Of a DNA stretch of 24,911 nt, positions 2,795 to 17,341 are shown in pieces (the first letter of the stretch is position 1; each line of letters begins with the position of its first letter). The stretch comes from an uncultured Clostridia bacterium (GTDB lineage Bacteria; Bacillota; Clostridia; Oscillospirales; Acutalibacteraceae), in NCBI GenBank assembly GCA_946006915.1, contig CAMFZK010000001.1, forward strand, positions 1-24,911, in the 5' to 3' direction. Position numbers and translations under genes: made by a program. A model generated the notes under the pieces. That model was not told where the DNA came from. It ran no database searches and saw only the letters and a program-made list of their open reading frames with translations.

Positions 2795-3742
2795 ATGGGC
2801 AGAAAAATTACTATTATCGGTGCAGGCAGCGTAGGTGCTACTATTGCATACGCATTATCTTTTACGGATATTGCTTCGGAAATTGTTTTGTTGGACATTA
2901 ACAAAGAAAAGGTTGAAGGCGAGGTTATGGATATTAACCAAGGTACCGCTTTCAGAGCGCCTATTTCTTTTGTTGCAGGCGAATATGAGGACGCAAAAGG
3001 TTCGGACATTGTAATCATCACTTCGGGTATTGCAAGAAAACCCGGTCAAACCAGAATTGAACTTACACAAACCAATGTTGAAATTCTTAAAAGCATCACT
3101 CCGAATATCGTTAAGGTTTGTCCGGACTCACTTTACATAATAGTAAGCAACCCTGTTGATATTATGACCTATGTATTTACAAAAATTTCGGGCATTCCCG
3201 AAAAACAAATTATCGGTTCGGGTACACTTTTGGATACTGCACGCCTTCGTTGCGGTATGTCAAAACATTTTGATGTTGCCCAAAACAATATTCACGCTTA
3301 CGTTTTCGGTGAACACGGTGACACTTCGTTCATTCCGTGGTCGGCGGCGTATATTTCGGGCGTATCTTTAGAAGAATACGAAAAACTTATGAAAGAAAAG
3401 GTAGCCGGCTTCCCCGATTTTAATAAAGACGATATGTATACCTACGTTCGCACTTCGGGCGGTGAAATTATCAACAAAAAAGGTGCTACATATTACGCAG
3501 TATCTACCTCTGTTTGCAACCTTTGCAGTATTCTTTGCGCTTCTAACGATTCTATTACAACCGTTTCCACAATGATGCACGGCGAATACGGTATTGAAGA
3601 TGTATGTTTAAGCACATTAACCCTTTTAGGACCTAACGGTGCACAGGGTAAAGTGCCTATGCGTCTTACCGATGAAGAAGTAGCAAAATTAAAGCACAGT
3701 GCCGACTCACTTAAAAATGTTATTTCTCAAATCAAATTATAA
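2795..3742 (+). CDS. mdh: LDH/MDH-family dehydrogenase, probably NADH-dependent malate dehydrogenase
   Basis: GAGSVG Rossmann motif with the NAD-type Asp (LLDIN), NPVD, LDTAR and GEHGD catalytic motifs. The substrate loop GIARKPGQTR has Arg at LDH position 102 (malate type) rather than Gln. It sits in an operon with fumarase and fumarate reductase. Confidence 0.8.
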   Translation: MGRKITIIGAGSVGATIAYALSFTDIASEIVLLDINKEKVEGEVMDINQGTAFRAPISFVAGEYEDAKGSDIVIITSGIARKPGQTRIELTQTNVEILKSITPNIVKVCPDSLYIIVSNPVDIMTYVFTKISGIPEKQIIGSGTLLDTARLRCGMSKHFDVAQNNIHAYVFGEHGDTSFIPWSAAYISGVSLEEYEKLMKEKVAGFPDFNKDDMYTYVRTSGGEIINKKGATYYAVSTSVCNLCSILCASNDSITTVSTMMHGEYGIEDVCLSTLTLLGPNGAQGKVPMRLTDEEVAKLKHSADSLKNVISQIKL

Positions 3743-3762
3743 TACATATAGGAGTATGTAAA

Positions 3763-4542
3763 ATGAAGTACAGTTATTATCCGGGTTGTACCCTAAAAAC
3801 AAAAGCAAAAGATTTGGATATGTACGCACGGCTTTCGGCAAAAGAATTGGGCTTTGAATTGGAAGAAATTGAAAACTGGCAATGTTGCGGCGGTGTTTAT
3901 CCGCTGGGTGCTGACGAAATCGGTTCTAAACTTTCTTCGGTTCGTGCGCTTAACTACGCTAAAGAAAAGGGGCAGGATTTAGTAACCCTTTGTTCGGCTT
4001 GCCACCACGTTATTAAGCGTGTTAATGACGATATAAAGAATGTGGAAGATATTAGAAACCGTGCTAATAACTATATGAAGTTGGAAGAACCCTATGCGGG
4101 TGAAACCGAAGTGCTGCACTTTTTGGAAGTACTTCGTGACCGAGTTGGGTTTGATAATTTGAAAAAAGCGGTTAAAAAGCCCTTAACCGGCAGAAAAATT
4201 GCGGCATATTATGGTTGTCTGCTTTTAAGACCCAGCAAGGTTTTAGCGTTTGATAATCCCGAAAACCCCACAATTATTGAAGATTTTATAAAAGCAATCG
4301 GGGCTACCCCGGTTGTATACCCTTACCGTAACGAATGTTGCGGCGGCTATATTTCACTTAAAGACGGCGAAAAAGCACAAAATATGTGCGAAAAAATAAT
4401 GGAAAGTGCAAGCGGTTTCGGCGCAGAAATGCTTATTACCGCCTGTCCGCTTTGTCTTTACAATCTTAACAAATGCGGAAAGTTGCCGGTAGTTTACTTT
4501 ACCGAACTTTTGGCAGAAGCATTAGGAATAAAGGAGGATTAG
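3763..4542 (+). CDS. hdrB: Heterodisulfide reductase subunit B-like protein (two CCG domains)
   Basis: YYPGC...CCGG...CSAC and YYGC...CCGG...CPLC: all ten Cys that ligate the two non-cubane [4Fe-4S] clusters. Confidence 0.92.
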   Translation: MKYSYYPGCTLKTKAKDLDMYARLSAKELGFELEEIENWQCCGGVYPLGADEIGSKLSSVRALNYAKEKGQDLVTLCSACHHVIKRVNDDIKNVEDIRNRANNYMKLEEPYAGETEVLHFLEVLRDRVGFDNLKKAVKKPLTGRKIAAYYGCLLLRPSKVLAFDNPENPTIIEDFIKAIGATPVVYPYRNECCGGYISLKDGEKAQNMCEKIMESASGFGAEMLITACPLCLYNLNKCGKLPVVYFTELLAEALGIKED

Positions 4543-4543
4543 T

Positions 4544-4930
4544 ATGAGTACCGTGAATAAAGCGGAGTTGATTAAAGAAATCAGCGGTGTTAATCCGCTT
4601 AAATGTATGAAGTGCGGTAAGTGTTCCGCTTCCTGTCCTTCTTTTAACGAAATGGATATTAAACCCCATCAGTTTGTGTCTTATGTGGTAAACGGCGATA
4701 TTGAAGCGCTCGTAAATTCGGCATCGCTTACTAAATGCCTTTCCTGTTTTGCCTGTATAGAGCGTTGCCCCCGTGACGTTAAACCCGCAAAACTTATCGA
4801 TGCGGCAAGACAGCTTGTTATAAGACAAAAAGGTGAAACTATGTTGTCACCCAATGAAATTCCCGAACTTTTAGACCCCGAAACACCCCAACAGTTGTTG
4901 GTAAGTGCATTCAGAAGATACAGGAGGTGA
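4544..4930 (+). CDS. hdrC: Heterodisulfide reductase subunit C-like 2x[4Fe-4S] protein (short)
   Basis: CMKCGKCSASCP and CLSCFACIERCP; lies between hdrB and hdrA. Confidence 0.88.
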   Translation: MSTVNKAELIKEISGVNPLKCMKCGKCSASCPSFNEMDIKPHQFVSYVVNGDIEALVNSASLTKCLSCFACIERCPRDVKPAKLIDAARQLVIRQKGETMLSPNEIPELLDPETPQQLLVSAFRRYRR

Positions 4931-4934
4931 GAGT

Positions 4935-6923
4935 ATGCAAAGAATAGGTGTATTTGTATGTCACTGCGGAAGTAACATCGCCGCTACGGTTGACGTTAAA
5001 AAAGTCGTAGAAATGGTTAAAACCGAACCCGGCGTTATCCATGCGGAAGATTATCAGTATATGTGTTCCGAAGCCGGTCAGGCAAAAATTATTGAAGCCG
5101 TAAAAGAACATAAATTAAACGGTCTTGTTGTTTGCTCCTGCTCTCCCCGTATGCACGAGGCAACCTTCCGTAAATGTGCCGAAAGAGCCGGCATAAACCC
5201 TTATATGGTGGAAATTGCCAACATTCGTGAACACTGTTCTTGGATACATAAGGATATGGACGAGGCAACCGAAAAAGCCGTTATTTTGGCACGTGCCGCT
5301 ATTGCAAAGGTTAACCTTAACGCTCCCTTGCAAGCAGGCGAAAGCGGTGTTGTTAAACGTGCGCTGGTAATAGGCGGCGGTATTGCGGGTATTCAAACCG
5401 CACTTGACATTGCCGATGCGGGTTTCCCGGTTGACATTGTTGAAAAAGAACCCAGTATAGGCGGAAGAATGTCACAACTTGACAAAACTTTCCCCACACT
5501 TGACTGTTCGGCGTGTATTTTAACCCCTAAAATGGTTGAAGCGGCCGCTCATCCCAATATCACAATTCACACCTACAGTGAAGTTGAAAATGTTTCCGGT
5601 TTTGTGGGCAACTTTACGGTTGAAATCCGCAAAAAAGCAAGAAGCATTGATATGGATAAATGTACAGGTTGCGGACTTTGTCAGGAAAAATGCCCGATGA
5701 AGAAAACCCCCAGCGAGTTTAACCGCGGACTTGGAAACAGAAGTGCAATTTACACACCTTTTGCACAGGCAATTCCGAATGTTCCGGTTATTGACCGTAA
5801 CGCCTGTCTTAAATTTAAAACCGGCAAATGCGGTATTTGTTCAACCGTTTGTGCCGCAGGCGCTATTGACTATACCCAGGTTGACACAATGGTAACCGAA
5901 AAATACGGTGCTATTGTTGTTGCAACCGGTTTTGATATGATTAAACTTGATAAGTATGACGAATACGCATACTCACAAAGCAAGGACGTTATTACTTCTT
6001 TGGAATTAGAGCGTGTTATGAACGCCGCAGGTCCTACAAAGGGACATCTTGAACGGCTTTCGGACGGTAAAGCACCTAAAGAAATAGTATTTATTCAATG
6101 TGTCGGCTCCCGTTGTGCGGACGGCAGAGGAAAGGGTTACTGCTCTAAAATTTGCTGTATGTATACCGCAAAACACGCAATGCTTATCCGTGATAAATAC
6201 CCCGATGTTAATGTAACGGTGTTTTATATTGACGTTCGTACTCCCGGTAAGAACTTTGACGAATTTTACCGCCGTGCAGTTGAAAATTACGGTGTAAATT
6301 ATGTTAAAGGTCAGGTTGGTAAGGTAATTCCGCAGCCAGACGGAAAACTTTTGGTTCAAGGTGTAGATTTAATAGATAACAAGCAAATTCTGAAGGAAGC
6401 CGATATGGTAGTGCTTGCCGCCGCTATTGAGCCAAACCCCGACGTTAGAAAGATTGCTACAATGTTGACCGCAAGTATTGATAACGACAACTTCTTAACC
6501 GAAGCACACGCAAAATTGCGTCCTGTTGAATCACCTACTGCCGGTATTTTCCTTTCGGGTGTTTGCCAAGGACCTAAAGACATTCCCGAAACGGTAGCAC
6601 AGGCAGGTGCGGCAGCAGTTAAGGCAATCGGTCTTTTGGCTAAAGATAAACTTATGACCAACCCCTGTACCGCTAAATCGGACGAACTTTTGTGTAACGG
6701 TTGTTCAAAATGTGCCAATGTTTGTCCTTACGGCGCAATTTCTTACGAAGTTAAGGAAATTAACGACCACGGTATAAGAGAAACCAGAAGAGTAGCACAG
6801 GTTAATAACGCACTCTGTCAAGGTTGCGGTGCTTGTACCGTTGCCTGTCCTTCGGGCGCTATGGACTTGCAGGGCTTCTCTAACAGACAGATTATAGCGG
6901 AGGTAGATGCAATATGCCGATAA
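4935..6923 (+). CDS. hdrA: Heterodisulfide reductase subunit A (FAD, multiple [4Fe-4S]; electron-bifurcating subunit)
   Basis: FVCHCG, CSCSPR and NIREHCSW N-terminal domain; VIGGGIAG FAD motif; KTFPTLDCSAC; inserted and C-terminal ferredoxin motifs; FIQCVGSR...CSKICCMY. Start moved from 4905 to ATG 4935, which follows GGAGGTGA (4923-4930). Confidence 0.95.
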   Translation: MQRIGVFVCHCGSNIAATVDVKKVVEMVKTEPGVIHAEDYQYMCSEAGQAKIIEAVKEHKLNGLVVCSCSPRMHEATFRKCAERAGINPYMVEIANIREHCSWIHKDMDEATEKAVILARAAIAKVNLNAPLQAGESGVVKRALVIGGGIAGIQTALDIADAGFPVDIVEKEPSIGGRMSQLDKTFPTLDCSACILTPKMVEAAAHPNITIHTYSEVENVSGFVGNFTVEIRKKARSIDMDKCTGCGLCQEKCPMKKTPSEFNRGLGNRSAIYTPFAQAIPNVPVIDRNACLKFKTGKCGICSTVCAAGAIDYTQVDTMVTEKYGAIVVATGFDMIKLDKYDEYAYSQSKDVITSLELERVMNAAGPTKGHLERLSDGKAPKEIVFIQCVGSRCADGRGKGYCSKICCMYTAKHAMLIRDKYPDVNVTVFYIDVRTPGKNFDEFYRRAVENYGVNYVKGQVGKVIPQPDGKLLVQGVDLIDNKQILKEADMVVLAAAIEPNPDVRKIATMLTASIDNDNFLTEAHAKLRPVESPTAGIFLSGVCQGPKDIPETVAQAGAAAVKAIGLLAKDKLMTNPCTAKSDELLCNGCSKCANVCPYGAISYEVKEINDHGIRETRRVAQVNNALCQGCGACTVACPSGAMDLQGFSNRQIIAEVDAICR

Positions 6924-7351
6924 ATAAAGAATTTAAACCGAAAATTGTTGCCTTTTGCTGTAACTGGTGCTCTTATGCAGGTGCAGATTTAGCAGGAAGC
7001 AGCCGTCTTGCTTATCCGGCAGACGTTAAAATTATTAAGGTGCCTTGTTCTTGCCGTGTAAACCCAATGTTTATTCTCCGTGCATTTGAAAAAGGTGCAG
7101 ACGGTGTTATAATGTGCGGTTGCCACCCCGGTGACTGCCACTATTCAACCGGTAACTACTATGCCCGCAGAAGAATGACCTTGCTTTTCTCAATGCTTGA
7201 CTATATGGGTGTTGAAAACGGCAGAACCCGTGTTGAATGGGTATCTGCGGCAGAGGGTGTTAAATTTTCTACTACAATGAACGAATTTGTAGAAAAGATT
7301 TATTCACTCGGTGAAAATGTAAGATTGGGGGATTTAAGATGCAAAAAATAG
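6914..7351 (+). CDS. flxD: MvhD-type [2Fe-2S] adaptor subunit (FlxD)
   Basis: FCCNWCSYAGADLAG, PCSCRV and GCHPGDCHY are MvhD/FlxD hallmarks; overlaps the hdrA stop by 10 nt. Confidence 0.9.
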   Translation: MPINKEFKPKIVAFCCNWCSYAGADLAGSSRLAYPADVKIIKVPCSCRVNPMFILRAFEKGADGVIMCGCHPGDCHYSTGNYYARRRMTLLFSMLDYMGVENGRTRVEWVSAAEGVKFSTTMNEFVEKIYSLGENVRLGDLRCKK

Positions 7352-8301
7352 TTGAAAGAGCAAAAGAACTTTTGGCTGACGGCACCGTAAACCGTGTGCT
7401 CGGTTGGAAAAAAGGCGATATGTGTTTTAACCCCGAACCCGCTTTTTTTGAAACCGCCGAAGATTTGGACGAAAATTTTGTATACGGCGGATTTTGCGGC
7501 GCAAATTTAAGCAAATATATGATAGATGCCTCTAAATTAGAGGGTAAAACTTTGGTTTTGCTGAAACCCTGTGATACATACAGTTTTAACCAACTTATTA
7601 ACGAACACCGTGTAGACCGTGAAAAAGCATATATTATCGGCGTTGGCTGTAAGGGTAAACTTAACATTGAAACAATTAAGCAGAGCGGTGTTAAAGGTAT
7701 TTTAAATATTACCGAAAACGGCGATATGCTTAACATTGAAACCCTTTACGGCAATACCGAAATGAAATATTCCGACGCTTTGCTTGAACGTTGCCACGTT
7801 TGTAAAGGCAAAGAACATAAAATTTATGACGAGTTAATCGGCGAATCGCAGGACACAAGCGACAGAGAACGTTTTGCAGAGGTTGAAAAAATCGAAAAAA
7901 TGTCACCTGAAGAAAAGTTTGCTTTCTTCCAAAAGGAATTAAGCAAATGTATCCGCTGCAACGCCTGCCGTAATGTTTGCCCGGCTTGCAGTTGCAGAAA
8001 ATGCGTGTTTGACAGTACAAAGTTTGATTCTTCACAAAAAGCAAACACCGATTCGTTTGAAGAAAAAATGTTCCACATAATCCGTGCGTTCCACGTAGCG
8101 GGCAGATGTACCGACTGCGGCGAATGTTCACGTGTATGTCCGCAGGGCATTCCGCTTCACCTATTTAACCGTAAATTTATTAAAGATATTAACGAATTTT
8201 ACGGCGAATACCAAGCAGGTGCCGATGTAGATGCCAAAGGTCCGCTTACCGAATATACTTTCGGTGACTGTGAACCGAGCATCGTTAAAGAGAGGGGATA
8301 A
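7339..8301 (+). CDS. flxC: FlxC-like Fe-S protein (FdhB/FrhB-related, 4Fe-4S dicluster)
   Basis: KPCD, GVGC, CHVC, CIRCNACRNVCPACSCRKC and HVAGRCTDCGECSRVCP; position within flxDCBA. Confidence 0.8.
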   Translation: MQKIVERAKELLADGTVNRVLGWKKGDMCFNPEPAFFETAEDLDENFVYGGFCGANLSKYMIDASKLEGKTLVLLKPCDTYSFNQLINEHRVDREKAYIIGVGCKGKLNIETIKQSGVKGILNITENGDMLNIETLYGNTEMKYSDALLERCHVCKGKEHKIYDELIGESQDTSDRERFAEVEKIEKMSPEEKFAFFQKELSKCIRCNACRNVCPACSCRKCVFDSTKFDSSQKANTDSFEEKMFHIIRAFHVAGRCTDCGECSRVCPQGIPLHLFNRKFIKDINEFYGEYQAGADVDAKGPLTEYTFGDCEPSIVKERG

Positions 8302-8304
8302 TGT

Positions 8305-9333
8305 ATGAAAAAAATTGCTAAATCCAATTTATCGGCATTATTCGCCAAGATAAACGAAACCAAAGACCTTTATGTGCCGGTTAAAAACGGCGAACAGGTA
8401 AACTTTGCCGCTTACAGCGAAGAAGCAGAAGTTGATTTAACCGCCCTTAAAACCGTTAAATCCCCTAAAGATGCCTTCTTCCCCCAAAGCGAAAACCTTT
8501 ACACCTGCTTTAACGAACAGGGCAAAATTTCAATCACCCCCGAAGAATTACAGGACAAAGATTTTGTGGTTTTCGGTATGAAAGCGTGCGACATTAAGGG
8601 TATTGAAGTACTTGATAAAGTATTTTTATCCGAACCGGTGGACAGTTTCTATGCCGCAAGACGTCAACACGGTATTATCGTAGGTCTTGCTTGCGATAAG
8701 CCGGAAGAATCCTGTTTTTGTACCGTTTTCGGTATAAACCCTGCCGAACCTACCGCCGATGTTGCGGTTTATGATGATGAAGACTTCCTTTATTGGAACG
8801 CTTTAACCGAAAAGGGCAACGCTTTGACCGAAACTCTTTGCGACCTTTTGGAAGATGCAGATAATACCGCAGTAGAAAACAAGAAAAAGGAAATAACGGC
8901 AATAGCCGAAAAACTCCCTTATGCTAATCTTTCGCTTGAGGGTTGGAACGGTGACGCTTTAACCGAAAAGTTTGACTCGCCTATATGGGAAGAACTTTAC
9001 AAACCCTGCCTTGCTTGCGGTACTTGTACTTTCTCTTGTCCTACCTGTCAATGTTACGATATTAAGGACTATAACACCGGCAACGGCATTAAGCGTTACC
9101 GTTGTTGGGATTCTTGTATGTATTCCGACTTTACAATGATGGCACACGGCAACAACCGTACAAGCCAAATGCAAAGATTCCGTCAAAGATTTATGCACAA
9201 ACTTGTTTACTTCCCCGCAAATAACGACGGGATGTATTCCTGCGTCGGTTGCGGACGCTGTGTAGACAAATGCCCCCAAAACCTTAACATTGTAAAGGTA
9301 ATTAAAGCATTTGAAAAAGGAGGAAAAGCGTAA
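8305..9333 (+). CDS. flxB: FlxB-like Fe-S protein (AsrA / sulfhydrogenase beta-like)
   Basis: KACD, CDKPEESCFC, CLACGTCTFSCPTCQC, RCWDSC, RFRQRFMHK and CVGCGRCVDKCP. Confidence 0.82.
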   Translation: MKKIAKSNLSALFAKINETKDLYVPVKNGEQVNFAAYSEEAEVDLTALKTVKSPKDAFFPQSENLYTCFNEQGKISITPEELQDKDFVVFGMKACDIKGIEVLDKVFLSEPVDSFYAARRQHGIIVGLACDKPEESCFCTVFGINPAEPTADVAVYDDEDFLYWNALTEKGNALTETLCDLLEDADNTAVENKKKEITAIAEKLPYANLSLEGWNGDALTEKFDSPIWEELYKPCLACGTCTFSCPTCQCYDIKDYNTGNGIKRYRCWDSCMYSDFTMMAHGNNRTSQMQRFRQRFMHKLVYFPANNDGMYSCVGCGRCVDKCPQNLNIVKVIKAFEKGGKA

Positions 9334-10187
9334 TGTGTGACTGTGATTGCCATAAGAATTATAATTTAGATACACTTATTCCGTTAGTCGGCGTTATTAC
9401 CGATATTAAAGAACAAACGCCCGACGTCAAAACTTTCCGTGTAAACGCTTTAGAGGGCGGAAAACTTTTTGAACACAAGCCCGGTCAATGCGCAATGCTT
9501 TGTGCGCCCGGTGTAAGCGAGGGAATGTTCTCTATAACATCTTCGCCCACAAATAAGGAATATCAGGAATTCAGCATTAAAAGATGCGGTCAACTCACCG
9601 AATATTTACATTCCCTAAAGGTTGGCGACCAAATCACCGTAAGAGGACCTTACGGCAACAACTTCCCCGTTGATACGGAACTTAAAGGCAAAAACCTTTT
9701 GTTTATTGCGGGCGGTATAGGTCTTGCACCTTTGCGTTCGGTAATTAACTATGTAATAGACAACCGCCAAGATTACGGCACAGTTGATATTCTTTACGGT
9801 TCACGTTCGGCAGATGACCTTGTAGGTCTTGACGAAATTCAAAATGTTTGGATGAACACTCCCGGTATAAATGTTCACCTTACAATCGACCGTGAGCAAG
9901 AGGGTTGGGACGGTCACGTTGGTTTTGTTCCCTCTTATTTAAGGGAGTTGGAATTTTCCAACGACAAAACCGTTTTGGTTTGCGGACCTCCTATTATGAT
10001 TAAGTTTGTTTTACAGGGATTACAGGAAATGGGCTTTACAAAAGAACAGGTTTACACAACACTTGAACTTCGTATGAAGTGCGGTGTCGGTAAATGCGGA
10101 CGCTGTAATATCGGCTCTAAATACGTTTGTAAAGACGGTCCGGTATTCCGTTTTGACGAAATTGACGAATTACCTAACGAGTATTAA
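9333..10187 (+). CDS. flxA: FlxA-like FAD/NAD(P)H-binding oxidoreductase with [2Fe-2S] (AsrB/PyrK-like)
   Basis: PGQ, FSITSSP, VRGPYGN, AGGIGLAPLRS, CGPPIM and the C-terminal MKCGVGKCGRC...VCKDGP motif. Confidence 0.85.
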   Translation: MCDCDCHKNYNLDTLIPLVGVITDIKEQTPDVKTFRVNALEGGKLFEHKPGQCAMLCAPGVSEGMFSITSSPTNKEYQEFSIKRCGQLTEYLHSLKVGDQITVRGPYGNNFPVDTELKGKNLLFIAGGIGLAPLRSVINYVIDNRQDYGTVDILYGSRSADDLVGLDEIQNVWMNTPGINVHLTIDREQEGWDGHVGFVPSYLRELEFSNDKTVLVCGPPIMIKFVLQGLQEMGFTKEQVYTTLELRMKCGVGKCGRCNIGSKYVCKDGPVFRFDEIDELPNEY

Positions 10188-10204
10188 GAAAGGTGTAACT
10201 GAAA

Positions 10205-10879
10205 ATGGAAAATATGGTTAATGTATTTTTTTACGGCAAAAAATATTCCGTACCCGCAGACCTTACTATTATGACTGCTATGGAGTATGCCGGATATACC
10301 CTTAAAAGAGGATGCGGTTGCCGTCACGGTTTTTGCGGTGCCTGTGCTACCATTTACCGCATTAAGGGCGACAATGAACTTAAAACCTGTCTTGCTTGCC
10401 AAACACAGGTACAGGAAGGTATGTATGTTGCAAGCATTCCCTTCTTCCCGACCGATAAAAGAACCTACAATATTAACGAGATTAAACCCACCAATCAAAT
10501 AATGATGGAACTTTATCCTGAAATTTACAGTTGTATCGGCTGTAACGCTTGTACAAATGCCTGCACACAGGGTCTTAACGTTATGCAGTATATTGCTTAT
10601 GCACAGCGTGCCGATTTTGAAAAGTGTGCCGAAGAATCTTTCGACTGTGTAGGTTGCGGATGTTGTTCTACAAGATGTCCCGCAGGTATTTCCCATCCTA
10701 TGGTTGGCTTGCTTGCCCGCCGTCTTACCGGTAAATATATCGCTCCCGAAACCGAACACCTTAAAAACAGGGTTGAAGAAATCAACAGGGGCGAATATGA
10801 CGAACTGATTGAACAAATTATGCAAAAACCCATTACAGAAATGCAAGAACTTTACAACACAAGAGAAATTGAGAAATAA
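10205..10879 (+). CDS. frdB: Fumarate reductase iron-sulfur subunit ([2Fe-2S] + 2x[4Fe-4S]; FrdB / TfrB N-terminal-like)
   Basis: CRHGFCGAC...CLAC ([2Fe-2S]), CIGCNACTNAC and CVGCGCCSTRCP; directly upstream of the flavoprotein. Confidence 0.8.
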   Translation: MENMVNVFFYGKKYSVPADLTIMTAMEYAGYTLKRGCGCRHGFCGACATIYRIKGDNELKTCLACQTQVQEGMYVASIPFFPTDKRTYNINEIKPTNQIMMELYPEIYSCIGCNACTNACTQGLNVMQYIAYAQRADFEKCAEESFDCVGCGCCSTRCPAGISHPMVGLLARRLTGKYIAPETEHLKNRVEEINRGEYDELIEQIMQKPITEMQELYNTREIEK

Positions 10880-10892
10880 GGAGGCGCTTAAT

Positions 10893-12503
10893 ATGTATAC
10901 ACCGTATCCGGAAAATATGATGGAATCCATCAAAAAAGTGGAAGCGTCCAGACAGGCGCGTATGGCAACAGAACCAAGACGTTTAACTGCTGATGAAAAA
11001 GATAACCTTTTAAAAGAATTCCATCCGGACTATAAACCGGAAGCATTTGCAGAAATCAAAGTCGGCCCCAACAAAGGTGAAAAAGCTCCGTTGGAATTGG
11101 CAAATATGCTTCATTCTACAAGCCGTATTTGTGGCGAAAACATTGATCTTACTAAAGTGGATTATGATGTGGATGTACTTGTTATCGGCGGCGGCGGAGC
11201 AGGTTCTTCCTGTGCTATCGAAGCGCATGAAGCAGGCGCAAATGTTATGATCGTAACAAAACTTCGTATTGGTGACGCTAATACAATGATGGCCGAAGGC
11301 GGTATTCAGGCAGCGGATAAAGAAAACGATTCTCCGGTACAGCATTACCTTGACTGTTTCGGCGGCGGACATTTTGCGGCCAAACCCGAACTTGTTAAGA
11401 AACTGGTTATGGAGGCACCCGATGCAATTAAATGGTTAAATGAACTTGGTGTTGAGTTTGACAAAGAAGAAGACGGCACTATGATTACTACTCACGGCGG
11501 CGGTACTTCAAGAAAGAGAATGCACGCCGCTAAGGATTATTCCGGTGCAGAAATTATGCGTACCTTGCGTGATGAAGTTATCAACCGCGGTATTCCCGTT
11601 GTAGAATTCACTTCTGCGGTAGAACTTATTAAAGATGATAAGGGTCAAGTTGCCGGTGCAGTTCTTCTTAATATGGAAACCGGCGACTATATGGTAGCAC
11701 GTGCTAAAACCGTTGTTATTGCTACCGGCGGTGCCGGAAGAATGCATTATCAAGGTTTCCCGACATCCAACCACTACGGCGCAACGGCTGACGGTCTTGT
11801 ATTGGGTTACAGAGCAGGCGCTAAACTTTTATATCAGGATTCTATTCAGTATCACCCAACAGGAGCAATCTATCCTTCACAAATTCTCGGAGCATTAGTT
11901 ACCGAAAAGGTTCGTTCTGTAGGCGCTCAATTGGTAAACGGCGAAGGCGAAGCATATATTCACCCATTGGAAACCCGTGATGTAAATGCATCGGGTGTTA
12001 TTCGTGAATGTGCCGAAGGCCGTGGCGTTGATGTTCCGGGCGGCGCAAAGGGTGTATGGCTTGATACTCCCATGATTGAAATTCTCGGCGGAGAAGGAAC
12101 TATTGAAAAGAGAATTCCGGCAATGTTCCGTATGTATATGAACTACGGCATTGATATGCGTAAAGTTCCGATTTTGATTTATCCTACACTTCATTATCAA
12201 AACGGCGGTCTTGAAATCGGCGGGGACGGATTTACAAAAAATATTGAAAATCTCCTGGTTGCAGGTGAAGCCGTTGGCGGTATCCACGGAAGAAACCGTC
12301 TTATGGGTAACTCACTTCTTGATATTATCGTTTTCGGCCGTAATGCAGGTAAAGCGGCGGCTAAAAAGTCACAAGAGGTTACTTTGGGCGAATTAACCCT
12401 TTCGCATATTGAAGATTACGCAAAAGAACTTAAAGCCGCAGGAGTAGAAACAAATGAAGTTTCTCCGCTCTTGCTTCCTAAATATGCCCGTCACGAAAGG
12501 TAG
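10893..12503 (+). CDS. frdA: Fumarate reductase flavoprotein subunit (soluble, predicted non-covalent FAD)
   Basis: VLVIGGGGAG, TMMAEGG, QYHPTG, TEKVR, LETRDV, PTLHYQNGG and HGRNRLMGNSL retain the dicarboxylate-site His/Glu/Arg set. Start moved from 10809 to ATG 10893, which follows AAGGAGG. Confidence 0.88.
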   Translation: MYTPYPENMMESIKKVEASRQARMATEPRRLTADEKDNLLKEFHPDYKPEAFAEIKVGPNKGEKAPLELANMLHSTSRICGENIDLTKVDYDVDVLVIGGGGAGSSCAIEAHEAGANVMIVTKLRIGDANTMMAEGGIQAADKENDSPVQHYLDCFGGGHFAAKPELVKKLVMEAPDAIKWLNELGVEFDKEEDGTMITTHGGGTSRKRMHAAKDYSGAEIMRTLRDEVINRGIPVVEFTSAVELIKDDKGQVAGAVLLNMETGDYMVARAKTVVIATGGAGRMHYQGFPTSNHYGATADGLVLGYRAGAKLLYQDSIQYHPTGAIYPSQILGALVTEKVRSVGAQLVNGEGEAYIHPLETRDVNASGVIRECAEGRGVDVPGGAKGVWLDTPMIEILGGEGTIEKRIPAMFRMYMNYGIDMRKVPILIYPTLHYQNGGLEIGGDGFTKNIENLLVAGEAVGGIHGRNRLMGNSLLDIIVFGRNAGKAAAKKSQEVTLGELTLSHIEDYAKELKAAGVETNEVSPLLLPKYARHER

Positions 12504-12511
12504 GAATTATA

Positions 12512-13354
12512 ATGCGTGAAATAAATGTAAGTGTTCTTACAGACGTTATTGAAAAACTTTGTATCGAAGCAAATGTTCATTTGCCGAGCGACGTTAAATG
12601 CGCTATTAAAACCTGCCGTAAATGTGAGGACGGTGTTATAGCACAGGGCGTTTTGGATAATATTATTGAAAATTTCCAAATTGCCGATAACGAAAATGTC
12701 CCCATTTGTCAGGACACAGGTATGGCTTGCGTTTTTCTTGAAATCGGTCAGGACGTTCACCTTGTAGGCGGCGATTTAACCGAAGCCGTAAACGAAGGTG
12801 TACGCCGAGGATACGATAAAGGTTACCTTAGAAAATCGGTTGTAAAAGACCCTATCAGAAGAGGTAACACGGGTGACAATACCCCCGCAATGCTTTATAC
12901 CGAAATTGTTCCGGGCGAAAATATTAAAATTACTGTTGGTCCTAAAGGTTTCGGCAGTGAAAATATGAGTATGATTAGAATGTTTAAACCCTCTGCAGGG
13001 CTCCAGGGTATTAAAGATTTCATACTCGAAGTAGTTGAAACCGCAGGCCCTAACCCCTGCCCTCCTATGGTTGTGGGTGTCGGTATAGGCGGCACATTCG
13101 ATAAATGTGCCTTACTTGCCAAAAAAGCGTTAATGCGTCCGCTTGATTCTAAAAACCCCGACCCTTACTATGCTGATTTGGAAGAGGAAATGCTCGAAAA
13201 AATCAATATGCTGGGTATCGGCCCTCAAGGTTTCGGCGGTAAAACCACCGCAATCGGGCTTAATATTGAAACATTGCCTACACATATTGCGGGTATGCCC
13301 TGTGCGGTTAATATTAACTGCCACGTAACACGTCATAAAACGGAGGTAATTTAA
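12512..13354 (+). CDS. Class I (Fe-S) fumarate hydratase, alpha subunit (TtdA/FumA N-terminal-like)
   Basis: PICQDTG, GYLRKSVV, KGFGSEN, NPCPP, GIGPQGFGGKTT and HIAGMPCAVNINCHVTRH. Confidence 0.9.
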   Translation: MREINVSVLTDVIEKLCIEANVHLPSDVKCAIKTCRKCEDGVIAQGVLDNIIENFQIADNENVPICQDTGMACVFLEIGQDVHLVGGDLTEAVNEGVRRGYDKGYLRKSVVKDPIRRGNTGDNTPAMLYTEIVPGENIKITVGPKGFGSENMSMIRMFKPSAGLQGIKDFILEVVETAGPNPCPPMVVGVGIGGTFDKCALLAKKALMRPLDSKNPDPYYADLEEEMLEKINMLGIGPQGFGGKTTAIGLNIETLPTHIAGMPCAVNINCHVTRHKTEVI

Positions 13355-13355
13355 A

Positions 13356-13913
13356 ATGATTAAAAAAATTAACTTACCTTTAACAGCGGAATTGGCAAAA
13401 ACCTTAAAAGCGGGCGACGAAGTATTGCTTACCGGCACTATTTATACCTCCCGTGATGCAGGTCATAAAAGAATGTGTGAATCTTTGGCAAAGGGCGAGC
13501 CGCTGCCCTTTGACCCTACAGATGCTACCATCTACTACGTAGGTCCTACCCCCGCAAAACCGGGTGCCGTAATCGGCTCGGCAGGTCCTACAACCTCCGG
13601 CAGAATGGACGCTTATGCTCCTACTATGATGTCGGTAGGTGCAAGAGGTATGATTGGTAAAGGCGCTCGTTTACCCGAAGTGGTTGAGGCAATGAAAAAA
13701 TACAACGGTGTTTATTTCGGCGCTATCGGCGGTGCGGGTGCGTTGCTTGCTAAATGCATTAAATCGGCAGAACTTATTGCTTTTGAAGATTTAGGTGCAG
13801 AAGCACTTCGCAAACTTTATGTAGAAGATATGCCGTTGGTTGTTATTATCGACAGCGAGGGTAACAACCTTTACGAAAACGGCAGAAAAGCATATTTAGA
13901 ACAACGTAAATAA
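13356..13913 (+). CDS. Class I fumarate hydratase, beta subunit
   Basis: TSRDAGHKR, YYVGPTP, GPTTSGRMD, MIGKG and EDLGAEA. Confidence 0.9.
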   Translation: MIKKINLPLTAELAKTLKAGDEVLLTGTIYTSRDAGHKRMCESLAKGEPLPFDPTDATIYYVGPTPAKPGAVIGSAGPTTSGRMDAYAPTMMSVGARGMIGKGARLPEVVEAMKKYNGVYFGAIGGAGALLAKCIKSAELIAFEDLGAEALRKLYVEDMPLVVIIDSEGNNLYENGRKAYLEQRK

Positions 13914-13927
13914 GAAGGGTTAAGAAA

Positions 13928-15178
13928 ATGAAATTATTTGGCGGTGTTGTTTCGGTTAGCGGAATAACATTCTTAATGTTTGCAGTTTTTGTAATTGCCG
14001 TTTTGGGTTACGCCTTGGGCAGAGTTAATATTAAAGGCGTTTCTTTAGGTACGGCAGGCGTATTTATAGTTGCACTTCTTTTCGGTGCATTATTTTCTAA
14101 AACTTTAAGCGGTACTGTAATCCAAACCGTAAACGGTGCGGCTGTGGATATCAGCGGTAATGCCTTAAAAATAGTAGAAAACATAGGGCTTATACTGTTC
14201 GTAACATCGGTTGGTTTTATAGCAGGCCCCAGTTTCTTTAAAGATTTAAAGAAAAACTATAAGTCATATATCCTTTTGGGTATTGTAATTATTCTTATGG
14301 GCGGTTTAACCTGTCTTTCGTGTTACTTTGTAGGCCGTAATTTTACCGACCTTTCGGCAAAACAGTTTATGGCTATTTGCGTTGGTCTTCTTTCGGGTGC
14401 TTTAACAAGTACCCCCGCTTTCTCGGCGTCAAAAGCAACCGTTGCACCCGAATTTGAAGAACTCGTAACGGTTGGTAACGGTATTGCTTACATTTTCGGC
14501 GTTATCGGGGTTGTGTTGTTCGTTCAACTTATCCCCAAAATCGTTAAAGCCGATATGGAAAAGGAAGCAAAAAAACTTGTAGTAGAAACCAAAGCCGAAA
14601 CAGTAAATGTAAAGAAAAAATGTTTTGAAATGGACGATTTCGGTTTATTCGCTTTCGGTCTTGCCGCTGTGGTTGGCGTGTTTGTGGGTGCAATTAAAAT
14701 ACCTATGTCTTCACAGGGTCTTTCGGGCACTACCTTCTCCTTAACCACAACCGGCGGTGCGCTTCTAACCGCACTGGTATTCGGTCATTTCGGTCAAATC
14801 GGCCTTTTGAGTTTAAGGGTGGATAATAAAACCCTTAAAACTTTCCGTGAACTCGGTTTAATGCTTTTCTTAATCGGTGCAGGTATTGCCGGCGGAACAA
14901 AGTTTGTTACCTACTTCAAACCCGTTTACTTCCTGTACGGTGCTTTAATGACTATTGTTCCTATGATAGTTGGCTTCCTTTTTGCAAAGTATGTTTTAAA
15001 GTTAAGTCTTTTAAACAACTTGGGTTCTATTACCGGCGGTATGACAAGTACCCCCGCATTGGGAACACTTATAAATGTTGCCAAAACCGAAAACATTGCC
15101 TCTGCCTATGCCGCAACCTATCCGATTGCGCTTATCGCAGTAGTGCTTGTTTCCCAATTCCTAATAATTTTATTCTAA
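13928..15178 (+). CDS. AspT/YidE/YbjL (aspartate:alanine exchanger) family transporter; candidate succinate exporter
   Basis: Multi-pass hydrophobic protein with the duplicated repeat motifs GLLSGALTSTPA and GSITGGMTSTPALG, plus SLGTAGVFIVAL, LILFVTSVGFIAGPSFF and YAATYP. Confidence 0.85.
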   Translation: MKLFGGVVSVSGITFLMFAVFVIAVLGYALGRVNIKGVSLGTAGVFIVALLFGALFSKTLSGTVIQTVNGAAVDISGNALKIVENIGLILFVTSVGFIAGPSFFKDLKKNYKSYILLGIVIILMGGLTCLSCYFVGRNFTDLSAKQFMAICVGLLSGALTSTPAFSASKATVAPEFEELVTVGNGIAYIFGVIGVVLFVQLIPKIVKADMEKEAKKLVVETKAETVNVKKKCFEMDDFGLFAFGLAAVVGVFVGAIKIPMSSQGLSGTTFSLTTTGGALLTALVFGHFGQIGLLSLRVDNKTLKTFRELGLMLFLIGAGIAGGTKFVTYFKPVYFLYGALMTIVPMIVGFLFAKYVLKLSLLNNLGSITGGMTSTPALGTLINVAKTENIASAYAATYPIALIAVVLVSQFLIILF

Positions 15179-15182
15179 AAAG

Positions 15183-15212
15183 TTTGCATCCTTTTTTAAG
15201 GATGCAAATTTT
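15183..15212 (+). terminator. Stem-loop, possibly a leaky terminator, between the transporter and hppA
   Basis: Perfect 11-bp stem TTTGCATCCTT / AAGGATGCAAA with a TTTT loop, followed by only four T. Confidence 0.6.
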
Positions 15213-15253
15213 CTAAAATATATTTTACATTTTCAACAGAAGGTGAAAAGATT

Positions 15254-17341
15254 ATGAAAATCGAAAATTTGTTGGTTTTGTTTACCTTCGTAGGTGCTTT
15301 GGTTGCCTTGGCTTACGTGGCAATTACCGCAAAAAGAGTACTGAAGTTCTCGGAAGGTACGGACAAAATGAAGAAAATCGCCTCTGCCATTCGTGAGGGC
15401 GCTAATGCTTACCTTAAAAGACAGTATAAGGTAGTTATTGTCTTCTTTGCCTGTATGCTTGTAATTTTAAGTGCTATGGCATCTTTTAAAATGCTTACTT
15501 GGTATGTGCCTTTTGCTTTTGTAACCGGCGGATTTTTCTCGGCTTTGTCGGGGTATATCGGTATGAAAATCGCTACCGCCGCAAACAGCAGAACCGCAAA
15601 TGCCTGCCGTGAGGGACTTAACAAAGGTCTTCGTGTGGCATTTTCTGCCGGTTCGGTAATGGGATTCACCGTTGTCGGCTTAGGTCTTTTGGATATTTCA
15701 ATTTGGTTTACACTTTTAAAATTTGTTTTTAATTGCGGTCCTTCGGAAATTACAAGCGCAATGCTTACTTTCGGTATGGGTGCTTCTTCAATGGCACTTT
15801 TTGCCCGTGTCGGCGGCGGTGTGTTCACTAAAGCGGCGGACGTAGGTGCAGACCTTGTGGGTAAGGTTGAGGCAGGTATCCCCGAAGACGACCCAAGAAA
15901 CCCCGCAGTTATTGCCGACAATGTAGGCGATAACGTAGGTGACGTTGCGGGTATGGGTGCAGACCTTTATGAATCTTATGTCGGCTCTATTATTTCGGCA
16001 TCGGCTTTGGGTGTTGCCGCTTTTAAAAGTTTTGAAGCAATGGCAATTCCTATGCTTATGGCGGCTGTCGGCATTATTTGCTCCATTATAGGTACACTTT
16101 TGGTTAGAACCAAGGAAAAAGCAACCCAAAAAGACTTGTTAAAATCTTTAAGCCGCGGCACTAATTTCAGTGCGGTACTAATTGCAATTCTCGCATTGCC
16201 TATGGTTTACTTCATTTTGGGCAAAGCAAATATCGGACTTTACTTTTCAATCCTTTCGGGACTTATAGCCGGTGTGCTTATAGGTCAGTCAACCGAATTT
16301 TTCACAAGCGAATCCTATAGACCTACCCGTTCTTTGGCAGGTAAAAGCGAAACGGGTTCGGCCACAATCATTATCGGCGGTTTGTCACTGGGTATGATTT
16401 CCACCGTTCTTCCGATAGTAATTATTTCGGTATGCGTATTGGTTTCCTACGCCGCCGCAGGCGGTTTCGGTTCTGCGGGTGCTTCGCACGGACTTTACGG
16501 TATCGCTTTGGCGGCAGTCGGTATGCTTTCTACATTGGGTATTACCTTGGCTACCGATGCTTACGGTCCTGTTGCCGATAATGCTGGCGGTATAGCCGAA
16601 ATGGCAGGACTTGAACCCGAAGTTCGTGAACGTACCGACGCACTCGACGCTTTAGGAAATACAACCGCCGCTACCGGTAAAGGTTTTGCTATCGGTTCTG
16701 CCGCACTTACCGCTTTGGCTTTAATGGCTTCTTACATTGATAAGGTTAAAGAAGTAGGCGGTAATGTCAAGGGATTTGACCTTATGAATCCCACCGTGCT
16801 TATCGGTTTGTTTATCGGTGCTTGTCTGCCGTTTGTTTTTGCGGCTTTAACAATGGAATCTGTCGGCAAAGCGGCACAGTCGGTTGTTATTGAAGTTCGC
16901 CGTCAGTTTAAAGAAATTGCCGGTATAATGGAAGGCAAAGCCGACCCCGACTATGCAAAATGCGTTGACCTTTGCACTAAATCAAGTTTGCGTGAAATGA
17001 TTTTACCCACCGTTGTTGCGGTTGTAACTCCTGTTGCAGTCGGCTTAATTTTGGGCTTTACCGGCGTTGTAGGTATGCTTGCAGGCGCTACCGCAAGCGG
17101 TTTCTTGCTTGCAATCTTTATGTCTAATTCGGGCGGTGCTTGGGATAACGCCAAAAAGTACATAGAATCCGGCGTTCACGGCGGTAAAGGCAGCGACCAG
17201 CACAAGGCGGCCGTTGTGGGCGATACGGTAGGCGACCCGTTTAAGGATACATCGGGACCGGCAATTAACATTCTTATTAAACTTTTAAGTATGGTATCTA
17301 TTGTGTTTGCCGCCCTTGTTGTTAATTTCAGTTTGCTTTAA
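15254..17341 (+). CDS. hppA: Membrane-integral ion-pumping pyrophosphatase (K+-dependent, Na+ or Na+,H+ type)
   Basis: DVGADLVGKVEAGIPEDDPRNP, DNVGDNVGD, ADLYESY, GNTTAATGKG, GGAWDNAKK and GDTVGDPFKDTSGP. Confidence 0.96.
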   Translation: MKIENLLVLFTFVGALVALAYVAITAKRVLKFSEGTDKMKKIASAIREGANAYLKRQYKVVIVFFACMLVILSAMASFKMLTWYVPFAFVTGGFFSALSGYIGMKIATAANSRTANACREGLNKGLRVAFSAGSVMGFTVVGLGLLDISIWFTLLKFVFNCGPSEITSAMLTFGMGASSMALFARVGGGVFTKAADVGADLVGKVEAGIPEDDPRNPAVIADNVGDNVGDVAGMGADLYESYVGSIISASALGVAAFKSFEAMAIPMLMAAVGIICSIIGTLLVRTKEKATQKDLLKSLSRGTNFSAVLIAILALPMVYFILGKANIGLYFSILSGLIAGVLIGQSTEFFTSESYRPTRSLAGKSETGSATIIIGGLSLGMISTVLPIVIISVCVLVSYAAAGGFGSAGASHGLYGIALAAVGMLSTLGITLATDAYGPVADNAGGIAEMAGLEPEVRERTDALDALGNTTAATGKGFAIGSAALTALALMASYIDKVKEVGGNVKGFDLMNPTVLIGLFIGACLPFVFAALTMESVGKAAQSVVIEVRRQFKEIAGIMEGKADPDYAKCVDLCTKSSLREMILPTVVAVVTPVAVGLILGFTGVVGMLAGATASGFLLAIFMSNSGGAWDNAKKYIESGVHGGKGSDQHKAAVVGDTVGDPFKDTSGPAINILIKLLSMVSIVFAALVVNFSLL

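Follow-up and report, generated by a model that had tools for sequence, protein, structure and literature searches.

The closest described counterparts of the system reported here are anchorless fumarate reductases linked to Hdr and Flx proteins. One of them belongs to the 'succinate operon' of Pseudoclostridium thermosuccinogenes (a 2019 preprint by Koendjbiharie & van Kranenburg, as cited in PMC7282089); a homologous 'succinate operon' is expressed in this organism, and its expression shifts with CO2 supply (PMC7282089). Coupled fumarate reduction has also been proposed for the tfrAB-flxABCD-hdrABC clusters of Endoriftia/Thioflavicoccus (tubeworm symbionts) (PMC6315080). In 2026, ferredoxin-reducing fumarate reduction driven by reduced nicotinamide adenine dinucleotide (NADH) was still a suggestion, with co-expression as its sole support (PMC13147460), and our literature search found no biochemical or structural paper on a bifurcating Hdr/Flx-linked fumarate reductase. 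A five-subunit, soluble and irreversible NADH-dependent complex that contains FrdAB has been shown biochemically in Hydrogenobacter thermophilus (Miura et al. 2008, as described in PMC13147460). Here we analyse an frdA-like flavoprotein gene (10893..12503, + strand; 536 amino acids plus the stop codon at 12501-12503) in a 24,911-nucleotide stretch, hereafter the window, of contig CAMFZK010000001.1 from the genome of an uncultured Clostridia bacterium (GCA_946006915.1; estimated completeness 75%). We propose, with a probability of roughly 60%, that its product is the catalytic flavoprotein in a soluble FrdAB of two subunits, which would receive its electrons from a co-transcribed Flx-Hdr module.

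The gene sits in a tightly packed string, all on the + strand, that encodes in order a lactate/malate dehydrogenase (LDH/MDH)-family dehydrogenase, HdrB, HdrC, HdrA and MvhD, then an Fe-S protein, an AsrA/HydB-like protein, an AsrB/HydG-like protein that binds flavin adenine dinucleotide (FAD) and NAD, and an FrdB-like protein, and finally the flavoprotein, the alpha and beta subunits of fumarase, an Asp-Al_Ex transporter and an H+-pyrophosphatase. The genes hdrB, hdrC, hdrA, mvhD/flxD, flxC, flxB and flxA (3763..10187, + strand) make up the presumed electron-input module; the frdB-like partner follows at 10205..10879 (+ strand), and the two class I fumarase subunits are encoded 3′ of the flavoprotein at 12512..13913 (+ strand). 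This places frdBA in one string with hdrABC, mvhD and flxABC, and the operon, as seen in the window, contains no membrane anchor genes; a search of the 75% complete genome gave no match to PF01127, the Sdh_cyt anchor. The locus thus resembles the P. thermosuccinogenes and Endoriftia systems, whose FrdAB likewise has no anchor and shares its gene cluster with Flx-Hdr and fumarase, but here the operon adds MDH and the Asp-Al_Ex transporter. The H. thermophilus complex differs in its accessory subunits (CDE), and no ferredoxin coupling is reported for it.

The FrdB-like protein (224 amino acids) has one plant-type 2Fe-2S motif, two CxxCxxCxxxC motifs and a helical-looking tail of about 60 residues. 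Because both CxxCxxCxxxC motifs are complete, it probably contains no 3Fe-4S cluster. Pfam detects Fer2 and Fer4 domains only, with no CCG domain in the protein and no family for its tail even at E ≤ 10. At least 594 GTDB species genomes encode a relative of the flavoprotein. In context counts made by phmmer with the window's own proteins (E ≤ 1e-5), each of the 80 closest genome loci (72-93% identity) retains every gene of the hdrB-hdrC-hdrA-mvhD-flxC-flxB-flxA-frdB-frdA series that its contig reaches; their hosts include Lachnospiraceae, Acutalibacteraceae, Oscillospiraceae, Ruminococcus and Anaerovoracaceae.

We aligned the flavoprotein with PDB sequences by phmmer and, using MAFFT, with E. 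coli FrdA, SdhA and NadB from NC_000913. A first-pass annotation, made from the letters of this DNA alone, had placed the Rossmann motif at residue 99 and an asparagine where E. coli FrdA carries His44, the residue that links FAD covalently; both readings hold. The dinucleotide-binding motif GGGGAG occupies residues 99-104 (11187..11204, + strand) within an FAD_binding_2 core, comprising the FAD-binding and capping domains, at residues 94-475 (11172..12317, + strand; Pfam PF00890, E 3.9e-64). Asn130 (AAT; 11280..11282, + strand) stands in a column where M. smegmatis Sdh1, E. coli SdhA and E. coli FrdA carry their flavinylated His and NadB has Ser. The asparagine is invariant: all 121 open reading frames (ORFs) that bear the N-terminal extension described below, from 160 fetched loci, have it.

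The residues around the substrate are also kept (all on the + strand). They include His321 in HPTG (11853..11855), a fumarate-carboxylate ligand; Thr337-Glu338 (11901..11906) of the TE..R loop, where Arg341 is retained too and the Thr is equivalent to the transition-state residue T244 of FrdA (PMC5773532); and Arg362 (11976..11978), which aligns with R287, the residue of FrdA that donates the proton (PMC5773532), with the next residue, Asp363, kept as well. His434 in LHYQNGG (12192..12194), which is followed by a conserved Tyr435, and Arg469 in GRNRLMGNSL (12297..12299) complete the set. Judged by the alignments, the fumarate site is intact, with His321, Thr337, Arg362, His434 and Arg469 matching the catalytic FrdA residues of PMC5773532. 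In FrdABCD, covalent attachment shifts the potential of FAD upwards by ~100 mV, from -145 to -55 mV, and variants that lack the His ligand can still reduce fumarate but no longer oxidise succinate (PMC5773532). Given that the Asn is invariant, the clade should therefore consist of one-way fumarate reductases that do not need SdhE, for which the 75% complete genome contains no match. We consider it very probable that the protein is a fumarate-reducing subunit with non-covalent FAD; the flavin would be expected to have a potential about 100 mV lower, and the enzyme to reduce fumarate and not to oxidise succinate.

The C-terminal end is much reduced. Only 67 residues follow the arginine of the NRL motif (Arg469), versus 189-211 in E. 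coli SdhA/FrdA, and none of the 121 extension-bearing ORFs has more than 96 residues there or a C-terminal domain. Pfam finds no Succ_DH_flav_C in the whole protein, as the first-pass annotation had anticipated along with the FAD_binding_2 match, and the tail alone has no match at E ≤ 10. An AlphaFold2 model from a 61-row alignment is confident, with a predicted local distance difference test score (pLDDT) of 94.8 and a predicted template modelling score (pTM) of 0.93; in it, the last long helix spans residues 473-493 and the chain ends 43 residues on, at 536. This tail (residues 494-536; 12372..12500, + strand) has one helix (504-515) left of the helical domain, and its last five residues are disordered. 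In VIA-align/Foldseek comparisons the best structural match is flavocytochrome c3 (Z 43.9, root-mean-square deviation 1.9 Å over 392 residues, model residues 71-493). E. coli FrdA (1KF6) aligns with Z 40.5 over 429 residues at 31% identity, model residues 88-530 lying on chain residues 0-512; residues 1-70 have no structural match in these core comparisons. Because residues up to 530 align to FrdA up to 512, the tail represents the first helix of the helical domain, a one-helix rump. The claim that the C-terminal helical domain is missing is thus right as to the Pfam domain and the early chain end, but one helix of it remains.

No curated family covers the protein, since all scores fall below their cut-offs. 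The best match in NCBIfam is TfrA (NF004900), with 334 bits against a cut-off of 718 and an alignment that ends at model position 427 of 546. The SdhA/FrdA models give 271 bits versus 567 (TIGR01812) and 188 versus 933 (TIGR01176), NadB (TIGR00551) 248 versus 453, and flavocytochrome c (TIGR01813) 197 versus 285; the generic SdhA/FrdA, NadB and flavocytochrome c matches end near model position 400-430. An all-against-library phmmer search returned 18,042 relatives, and we surveyed the architecture of the best 150 representatives. Three arrangements emerge. In one, exemplified by P0121, P0128, P0131-P0133, P0135, P0141 and P0156 (40-57% identity), an extension of 85-103 amino acids goes with an Asn in place of the His, and the chain runs on for 24-82 residues beyond the NRL arginine. 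The second, 'minimal' arrangement is about 405 amino acids long, with Asn or Lys at the His site and neither extension nor C-terminal domain. Proteins of the third are 540-610 amino acids long, have the C-terminal domain and mostly carry His at the site; P0219, which scores above the TfrA cut-off (765 bits), belongs here and has Gly. Two further proteins, P0207 and P0221, are ~1100 amino acids long and contain two tandem FAD_binding_2 modules, each related to this family, with Asn at the His site; they lie on a long, well-supported branch.

An unrooted maximum-likelihood tree of representatives (core region only, 57 rows, quick search) sets the extension-bearing and minimal groups apart from all proteins with a C-terminal domain, among them E. 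coli NadB, FrdA and SdhA and TfrA, with a Shimodaira–Hasegawa-like approximate likelihood ratio test (SH-aLRT) value of 95. The minimal group (SH-aLRT 99) nests within or next to the extension-bearing proteins, NadB forms a clade of its own (SH-aLRT 100), and the TfrA-type P0219 lies in the other half of the tree. The extension-bearing proteins are a distinct anchorless Frd branch in which FAD is expected to be non-covalent, in agreement with the subfamily suggested at first pass. The label 're-engineered' that came with that suggestion was too strong: the nearest named relatives also lack the His (Gly in the TfrA-scoring P0219, Ser in NadB), and other soluble members of the superfamily are without the C-terminal domain.

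The N-terminal extension is a real and conserved part of the protein, as the first-pass estimate of ~90 residues implied. In the mechanical ORF list the frame begins at a TTG at 10809, overlapping the upstream frdB-like gene (end 10879). The long N-terminus nevertheless counts as real because a ribosome-binding site, GGAGG (10881..10885, + strand), lies 7 nucleotides 5′ of the ATG at 10893, and because homologues of 532-545 amino acids, found by the thousand, cover 100% of the 536-residue product. The alignment makes the N-terminus 88 residues longer than that of E. coli FrdA, the extension overall measuring 88-93 residues. In the model, residues 1-93 (10893..11171, + strand) form helices 7-18/20-25 and 33-43, a hairpin at 52-66 (strands 52-54 and 64-66) and a helix at 67-73. 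A His44-Pro45-Asp46 motif (11022..11030, + strand) recurs as HPD in 120 of the 121 extension-bearing ORFs, and Arg20 and Gly58 are further invariant residues.

Within the whole-protein model this region reaches pLDDT 85-97. Modelled alone from 31 diverse sequences, it keeps its secondary structure at pLDDT 85, but its pTM is 0.43. As its shape is confident only within the whole protein (pTM 0.93 versus 0.43), we refer to it as an arm, not an independent domain; on this reading it assumes its shape only with the help of the core and perhaps also of a partner. The arm has no Pfam family at E ≤ 10 and nothing comparable in the PDB (Foldseek best E 2; VIA wide best Z 2.2), although the low pTM of the isolated arm makes such fold searches weak tests; in the ESM Atlas, residues 1-93 reach best scores of 0.88, to clusters of ~99 amino acids, which is below a meaningful level. 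The proposed unrecognised N-terminal domain is therefore unrecognised in both Pfam and solved structures, but it is not a domain in its own right. Two other identities for the arm were considered and dropped. A circularly permuted C-terminal domain is unsupported, with only a chance DUF460 match (0.078) and no PDB match, and a J-domain, to which the HPD motif might point, finds no DnaJ match in Pfam and does not fit the secondary structure predicted after HPD.

Among 300 genomes sampled evenly from the window's class, a hidden Markov model of the arm alone found matches in 67, one per genome. The matches always lie at the start of a frame, and the frames are ~535-560 amino acids long except for two of 135 and 324. 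More distant arm-bearing proteins come from metagenome-assembled genomes of Gammaproteobacteria/Thiotrichales and from Prochlorococcus sp. MIT 1201. The latter is an unexpected host for an anaerobe-type fumarate reductase; the arm-bearing member recorded from it (P0133/P0285) is 542 amino acids long and 45% identical.

The arm is found together with frdB. We counted neighbours in a metagenome scan that was seeded with the minimal clade and returned both groups, using loci with enough flank. An frdB-like gene adjoins the flavoprotein gene in at least 39 of 42 arm-bearing loci by script and in 41 by eye, the script having missed L132 and L143 because of overlapping stop-to-stop frames. The corresponding figure for the minimal clade is 0 of 13, and no ORF with a ferredoxin-type Cys motif was present in up to 8 kb of flank at 23 minimal-clade loci. 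In one natural fusion, P0124 (727 amino acids), a complete FrdB (1-221) is joined end-to-end to the flavoprotein from residue 11, so the C-terminus of FrdB and the beginning of the arm can lie side by side. Together, the co-occurrence and this fusion favour an arm that goes with FrdB over one that replaces the lost domain or docks Hdr. Two items were not used as evidence. A Fisher test of arm against frdB gives p 4e-10, but the groups are two clades and not independent samples. A second joined protein, P0094 from a close relative (675 amino acids; FrdB 1-171 joined to FrdA 31-536), has a junction that drops the FrdB tail and the first arm helix; it may have arisen by in-frame deletion in nature, or it may be an artefact of assembly or mutation. 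The minimal clade (L090-L123, L126, L147) comes mostly from soil and sediment metagenomes, has Pro in place of Thr337 and is followed 3′ by class I fumarase genes; it may represent a stand-alone soluble fumarate reductase.

The link to Hdr is looser. Twelve of the diverse loci with an arm have at least 5 kb of flank at each end; in eight of these, Hdr genes are nearby, some as Flx-Hdr and some as a large fused HdrA with HdrC and HdrB. The environmental loci L142, L157, L158, L162, L166 and L169 have frdBA beside HdrC, HdrB and HdrA-like frames of 800-1520 amino acids stop-to-stop, with no Flx. The frdBA reductase module seems to have been combined with different input modules.

In the mechanism we propose, the flavoprotein and the FrdB-like 2Fe-2S/2x[4Fe-4S] protein would form a soluble fumarate reductase. 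Electrons would pass from NADH to FlxA and through FlxBC and MvhD to the FAD of HdrA, and would be split there, one branch leading to ferredoxin (Fd) and the other through HdrC/HdrB and FrdB to the FAD of the flavoprotein and on to fumarate. The operon also provides for the substrate pathway, in which oxaloacetate or malate would be turned into fumarate and then into succinate for export. The coupling, already proposed by others (PMC7282089, citing the 2019 preprint; PMC6315080), would be 2 NADH + fumarate + Fd(ox) → 2 NAD+ + succinate + Fd(red), after which Rnf would regain the energy stored in ferredoxin; it is thermodynamically reasonable, and the genome contains two RnfD/NqrB-type genes. 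On whether this ferredoxin-reducing bifurcation takes place, we regard the chances as evenly balanced. The arm would pack on the flavoprotein core and form part of the seat for FrdB, a job that in classical FrdA, SdhA and TfrA may belong to the C-terminal domains; we lean slightly towards the arm being an FrdB-linked structural element of this kind. A more tentative extension, which we think could be true but would not bet on, is that the arm serves as an adaptor by which a flavoprotein with non-covalent FAD and no C-terminal domain holds an all-[4Fe-4S] FrdB. FrdAB would then be a portable terminal module for different Hdr-type bifurcating modules, of which Clostridia have Flx-Hdr and environmental lineages a large, fused type of HdrA, and quinone-free anaerobes, among them about one-fifth of the sampled Clostridia species, would gain an energy-conserving fumarate 'respiration' via ferredoxin and Rnf.

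Several points weigh against our proposal. The arm-frdB co-occurrence is essentially one evolutionary event, separating two clades, plus one fusion, and it is from these that contact between arm and FrdB is deduced. The existence of an arm-less clade means that the core is viable without arm or C-terminal domain, and classical FrdA binds FrdB through a surface that bridges the flavin and capping domains, so an extra element is not obviously needed (PMC5773532). The CCG clusters of HdrB have no explained role in a disulfide-free path. Finally, our literature search returned no biochemistry for any member of the arm-bearing clade.

The arm could instead merely stabilise a core that has lost its C-terminal domain and play no part in binding FrdB or Hdr. 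It is modelled confidently, packed on the monomer with no partner present, and its presence coincides with absence of the C-terminal domain in every arm-bearing ORF. Yet the sister clade of ~405 amino acids has neither and still retains the catalytic residues, which indicates that a core can do without both, and the idea that the extension replaces the missing domain, raised at first pass, is not simply correct. Since the arm also tracks the presence of frdB and is fused directly to FrdB in P0124, we find a purely stabilising role unlikely. The other early suggestion, that the extension docks onto FrdB or Hdr, fares better in its first half, in that the extension is tied to the FrdB-like partner. 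Docking of the arm onto HdrB or HdrC would suit the unbroken hdr-flx-frdBA gene series of the 80 close loci and the Hdr genes near eight of the 12 diverse loci, but the other four show no Hdr gene within 5-8 kb though frdB adjoins, which makes Hdr the less likely partner. By analogy with SdhB, moreover, the distal FrdB cluster would be the expected contact to upstream partners, and we rate docking onto the Hdr/Flx module as quite improbable.

Two further alternatives concern the reaction itself. The operon might encode a split thiol:fumarate reductase like archaeal TfrAB, in which a low-molecular-weight dithiol or a DsrC-like protein is oxidised at HdrB and the electrons go to fumarate. TfrA is, after all, the top-scoring NCBIfam model, HdrB has two CCG repeats, and TfrB is an FrdB-HdrB-type fusion whose NCBIfam model partially matches both the FrdB-like and the HdrB proteins. 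The score lies far under the TfrA cut-off, however, and the true TfrA sits in the other half of the tree; a search of the genome turned up no CCG protein other than HdrB, the window showed no gene for a thiol carrier, and the NADH-input Flx module would be superfluous, so this scheme appears very improbable. Still harder to credit is another substrate, with the protein acting as an L-aspartate oxidase like NadB or reducing another enoate such as urocanate. It shares the fold and most residues with NadB and urocanate reductase, and no other full FAD_binding_2 protein was detected in the genome, but MDH and fumarase share its operon, all four dicarboxylate ligands are kept, no NadA match was found in the 75% complete genome, and the NadB clade is separate in the tree.

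Comparison with better-known enzymes places the proposed soluble FrdAB more precisely. E. coli FrdA (1KF6) has the same FAD and capping domains, the same catalytic residues and a 2Fe-2S/4Fe-4S partner subunit, but its FAD is bound covalently to His44, its helical and C-terminal domains are complete, it has the anchors FrdCD and a quinol donor, and it has no arm. TfrA is soluble and linked to Hdr-type CCG chemistry. The TfrA of methanogens (NF004900) is the best-scoring curated family and likewise lacks the flavinylation His, as the Gly of P0219 illustrates, but keeps a C-terminal domain of ~165 amino acids and has no N-terminal arm; its partner TfrB itself carries CCG domains, whereas here CCG occurs only in the separate HdrB. 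Flavocytochrome c3 of Shewanella and yeast Osm1 share the non-covalent FAD, the absence of Succ_DH_flav_C and unidirectionality, but they have no Fe-S subunit and take electrons from a fused haem domain or directly from flavin/NADH. Non-covalent FAD is thus common to NadB, TfrA and the single-subunit soluble reductases, and absence of the C-terminal domain to flavocytochrome c3, Osm1 and urocanate reductase. To our knowledge, all structurally known members with an Fe-S partner (SdhA, FrdA and AprA) keep the helical C-terminal domain. What is new is the combination, a flavoprotein lacking this domain that works with an Fe-S subunit and has a dedicated N-terminal arm; the Hdr/Flx operon idea was already published in 2019-2020 as a 'novel fumarate reductase' (PMC7282089, PMC6315080). 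We found no description of this flavoprotein architecture in the literature, a comparison that did not take in the 2019 preprint.

Anchorless, Hdr/Flx-linked fumarate reductase is common in gut Clostridia, and succinate, from whose production quinone-free Clostridia may gain energy, is a major cross-feeding and signalling metabolite of the gut. The clade is currently annotated only as 'FAD-dependent oxidoreductase'; a simple signature, made up of the arm with its HPD motif plus the invariant Asn, separates it from NadB, SdhA and TfrA, and the arm with R20, H44 and D46 provides concrete targets for tracing the electrical connection of the reductase to FrdB and Hdr.

Relative to window positions 2795-15178, the operon proteins of loci L010-L059 are 80-97% identical among genomes of Acutalibacteraceae, Oscillospiraceae and Lachnospiraceae, and the operon is patchy within families, being present in one of five genomes in the window's own family. 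High identity across families together with this patchiness suggests horizontal spread among gut Clostridia. The assembly measures 1.06 Mb, compared with 1.7 Mb for a same-genus genome, and at 75% completeness shows no match to the [FeFe]-hydrogenase large subunit. Directly 3′ of the fumarase genes, positions 13928-17341 encode the Asp-Al_Ex transporter, probably a dicarboxylate exchanger, and the H+-translocating pyrophosphatase; the transporter is kept in many related loci and the pyrophosphatase only in the closest one, L011.

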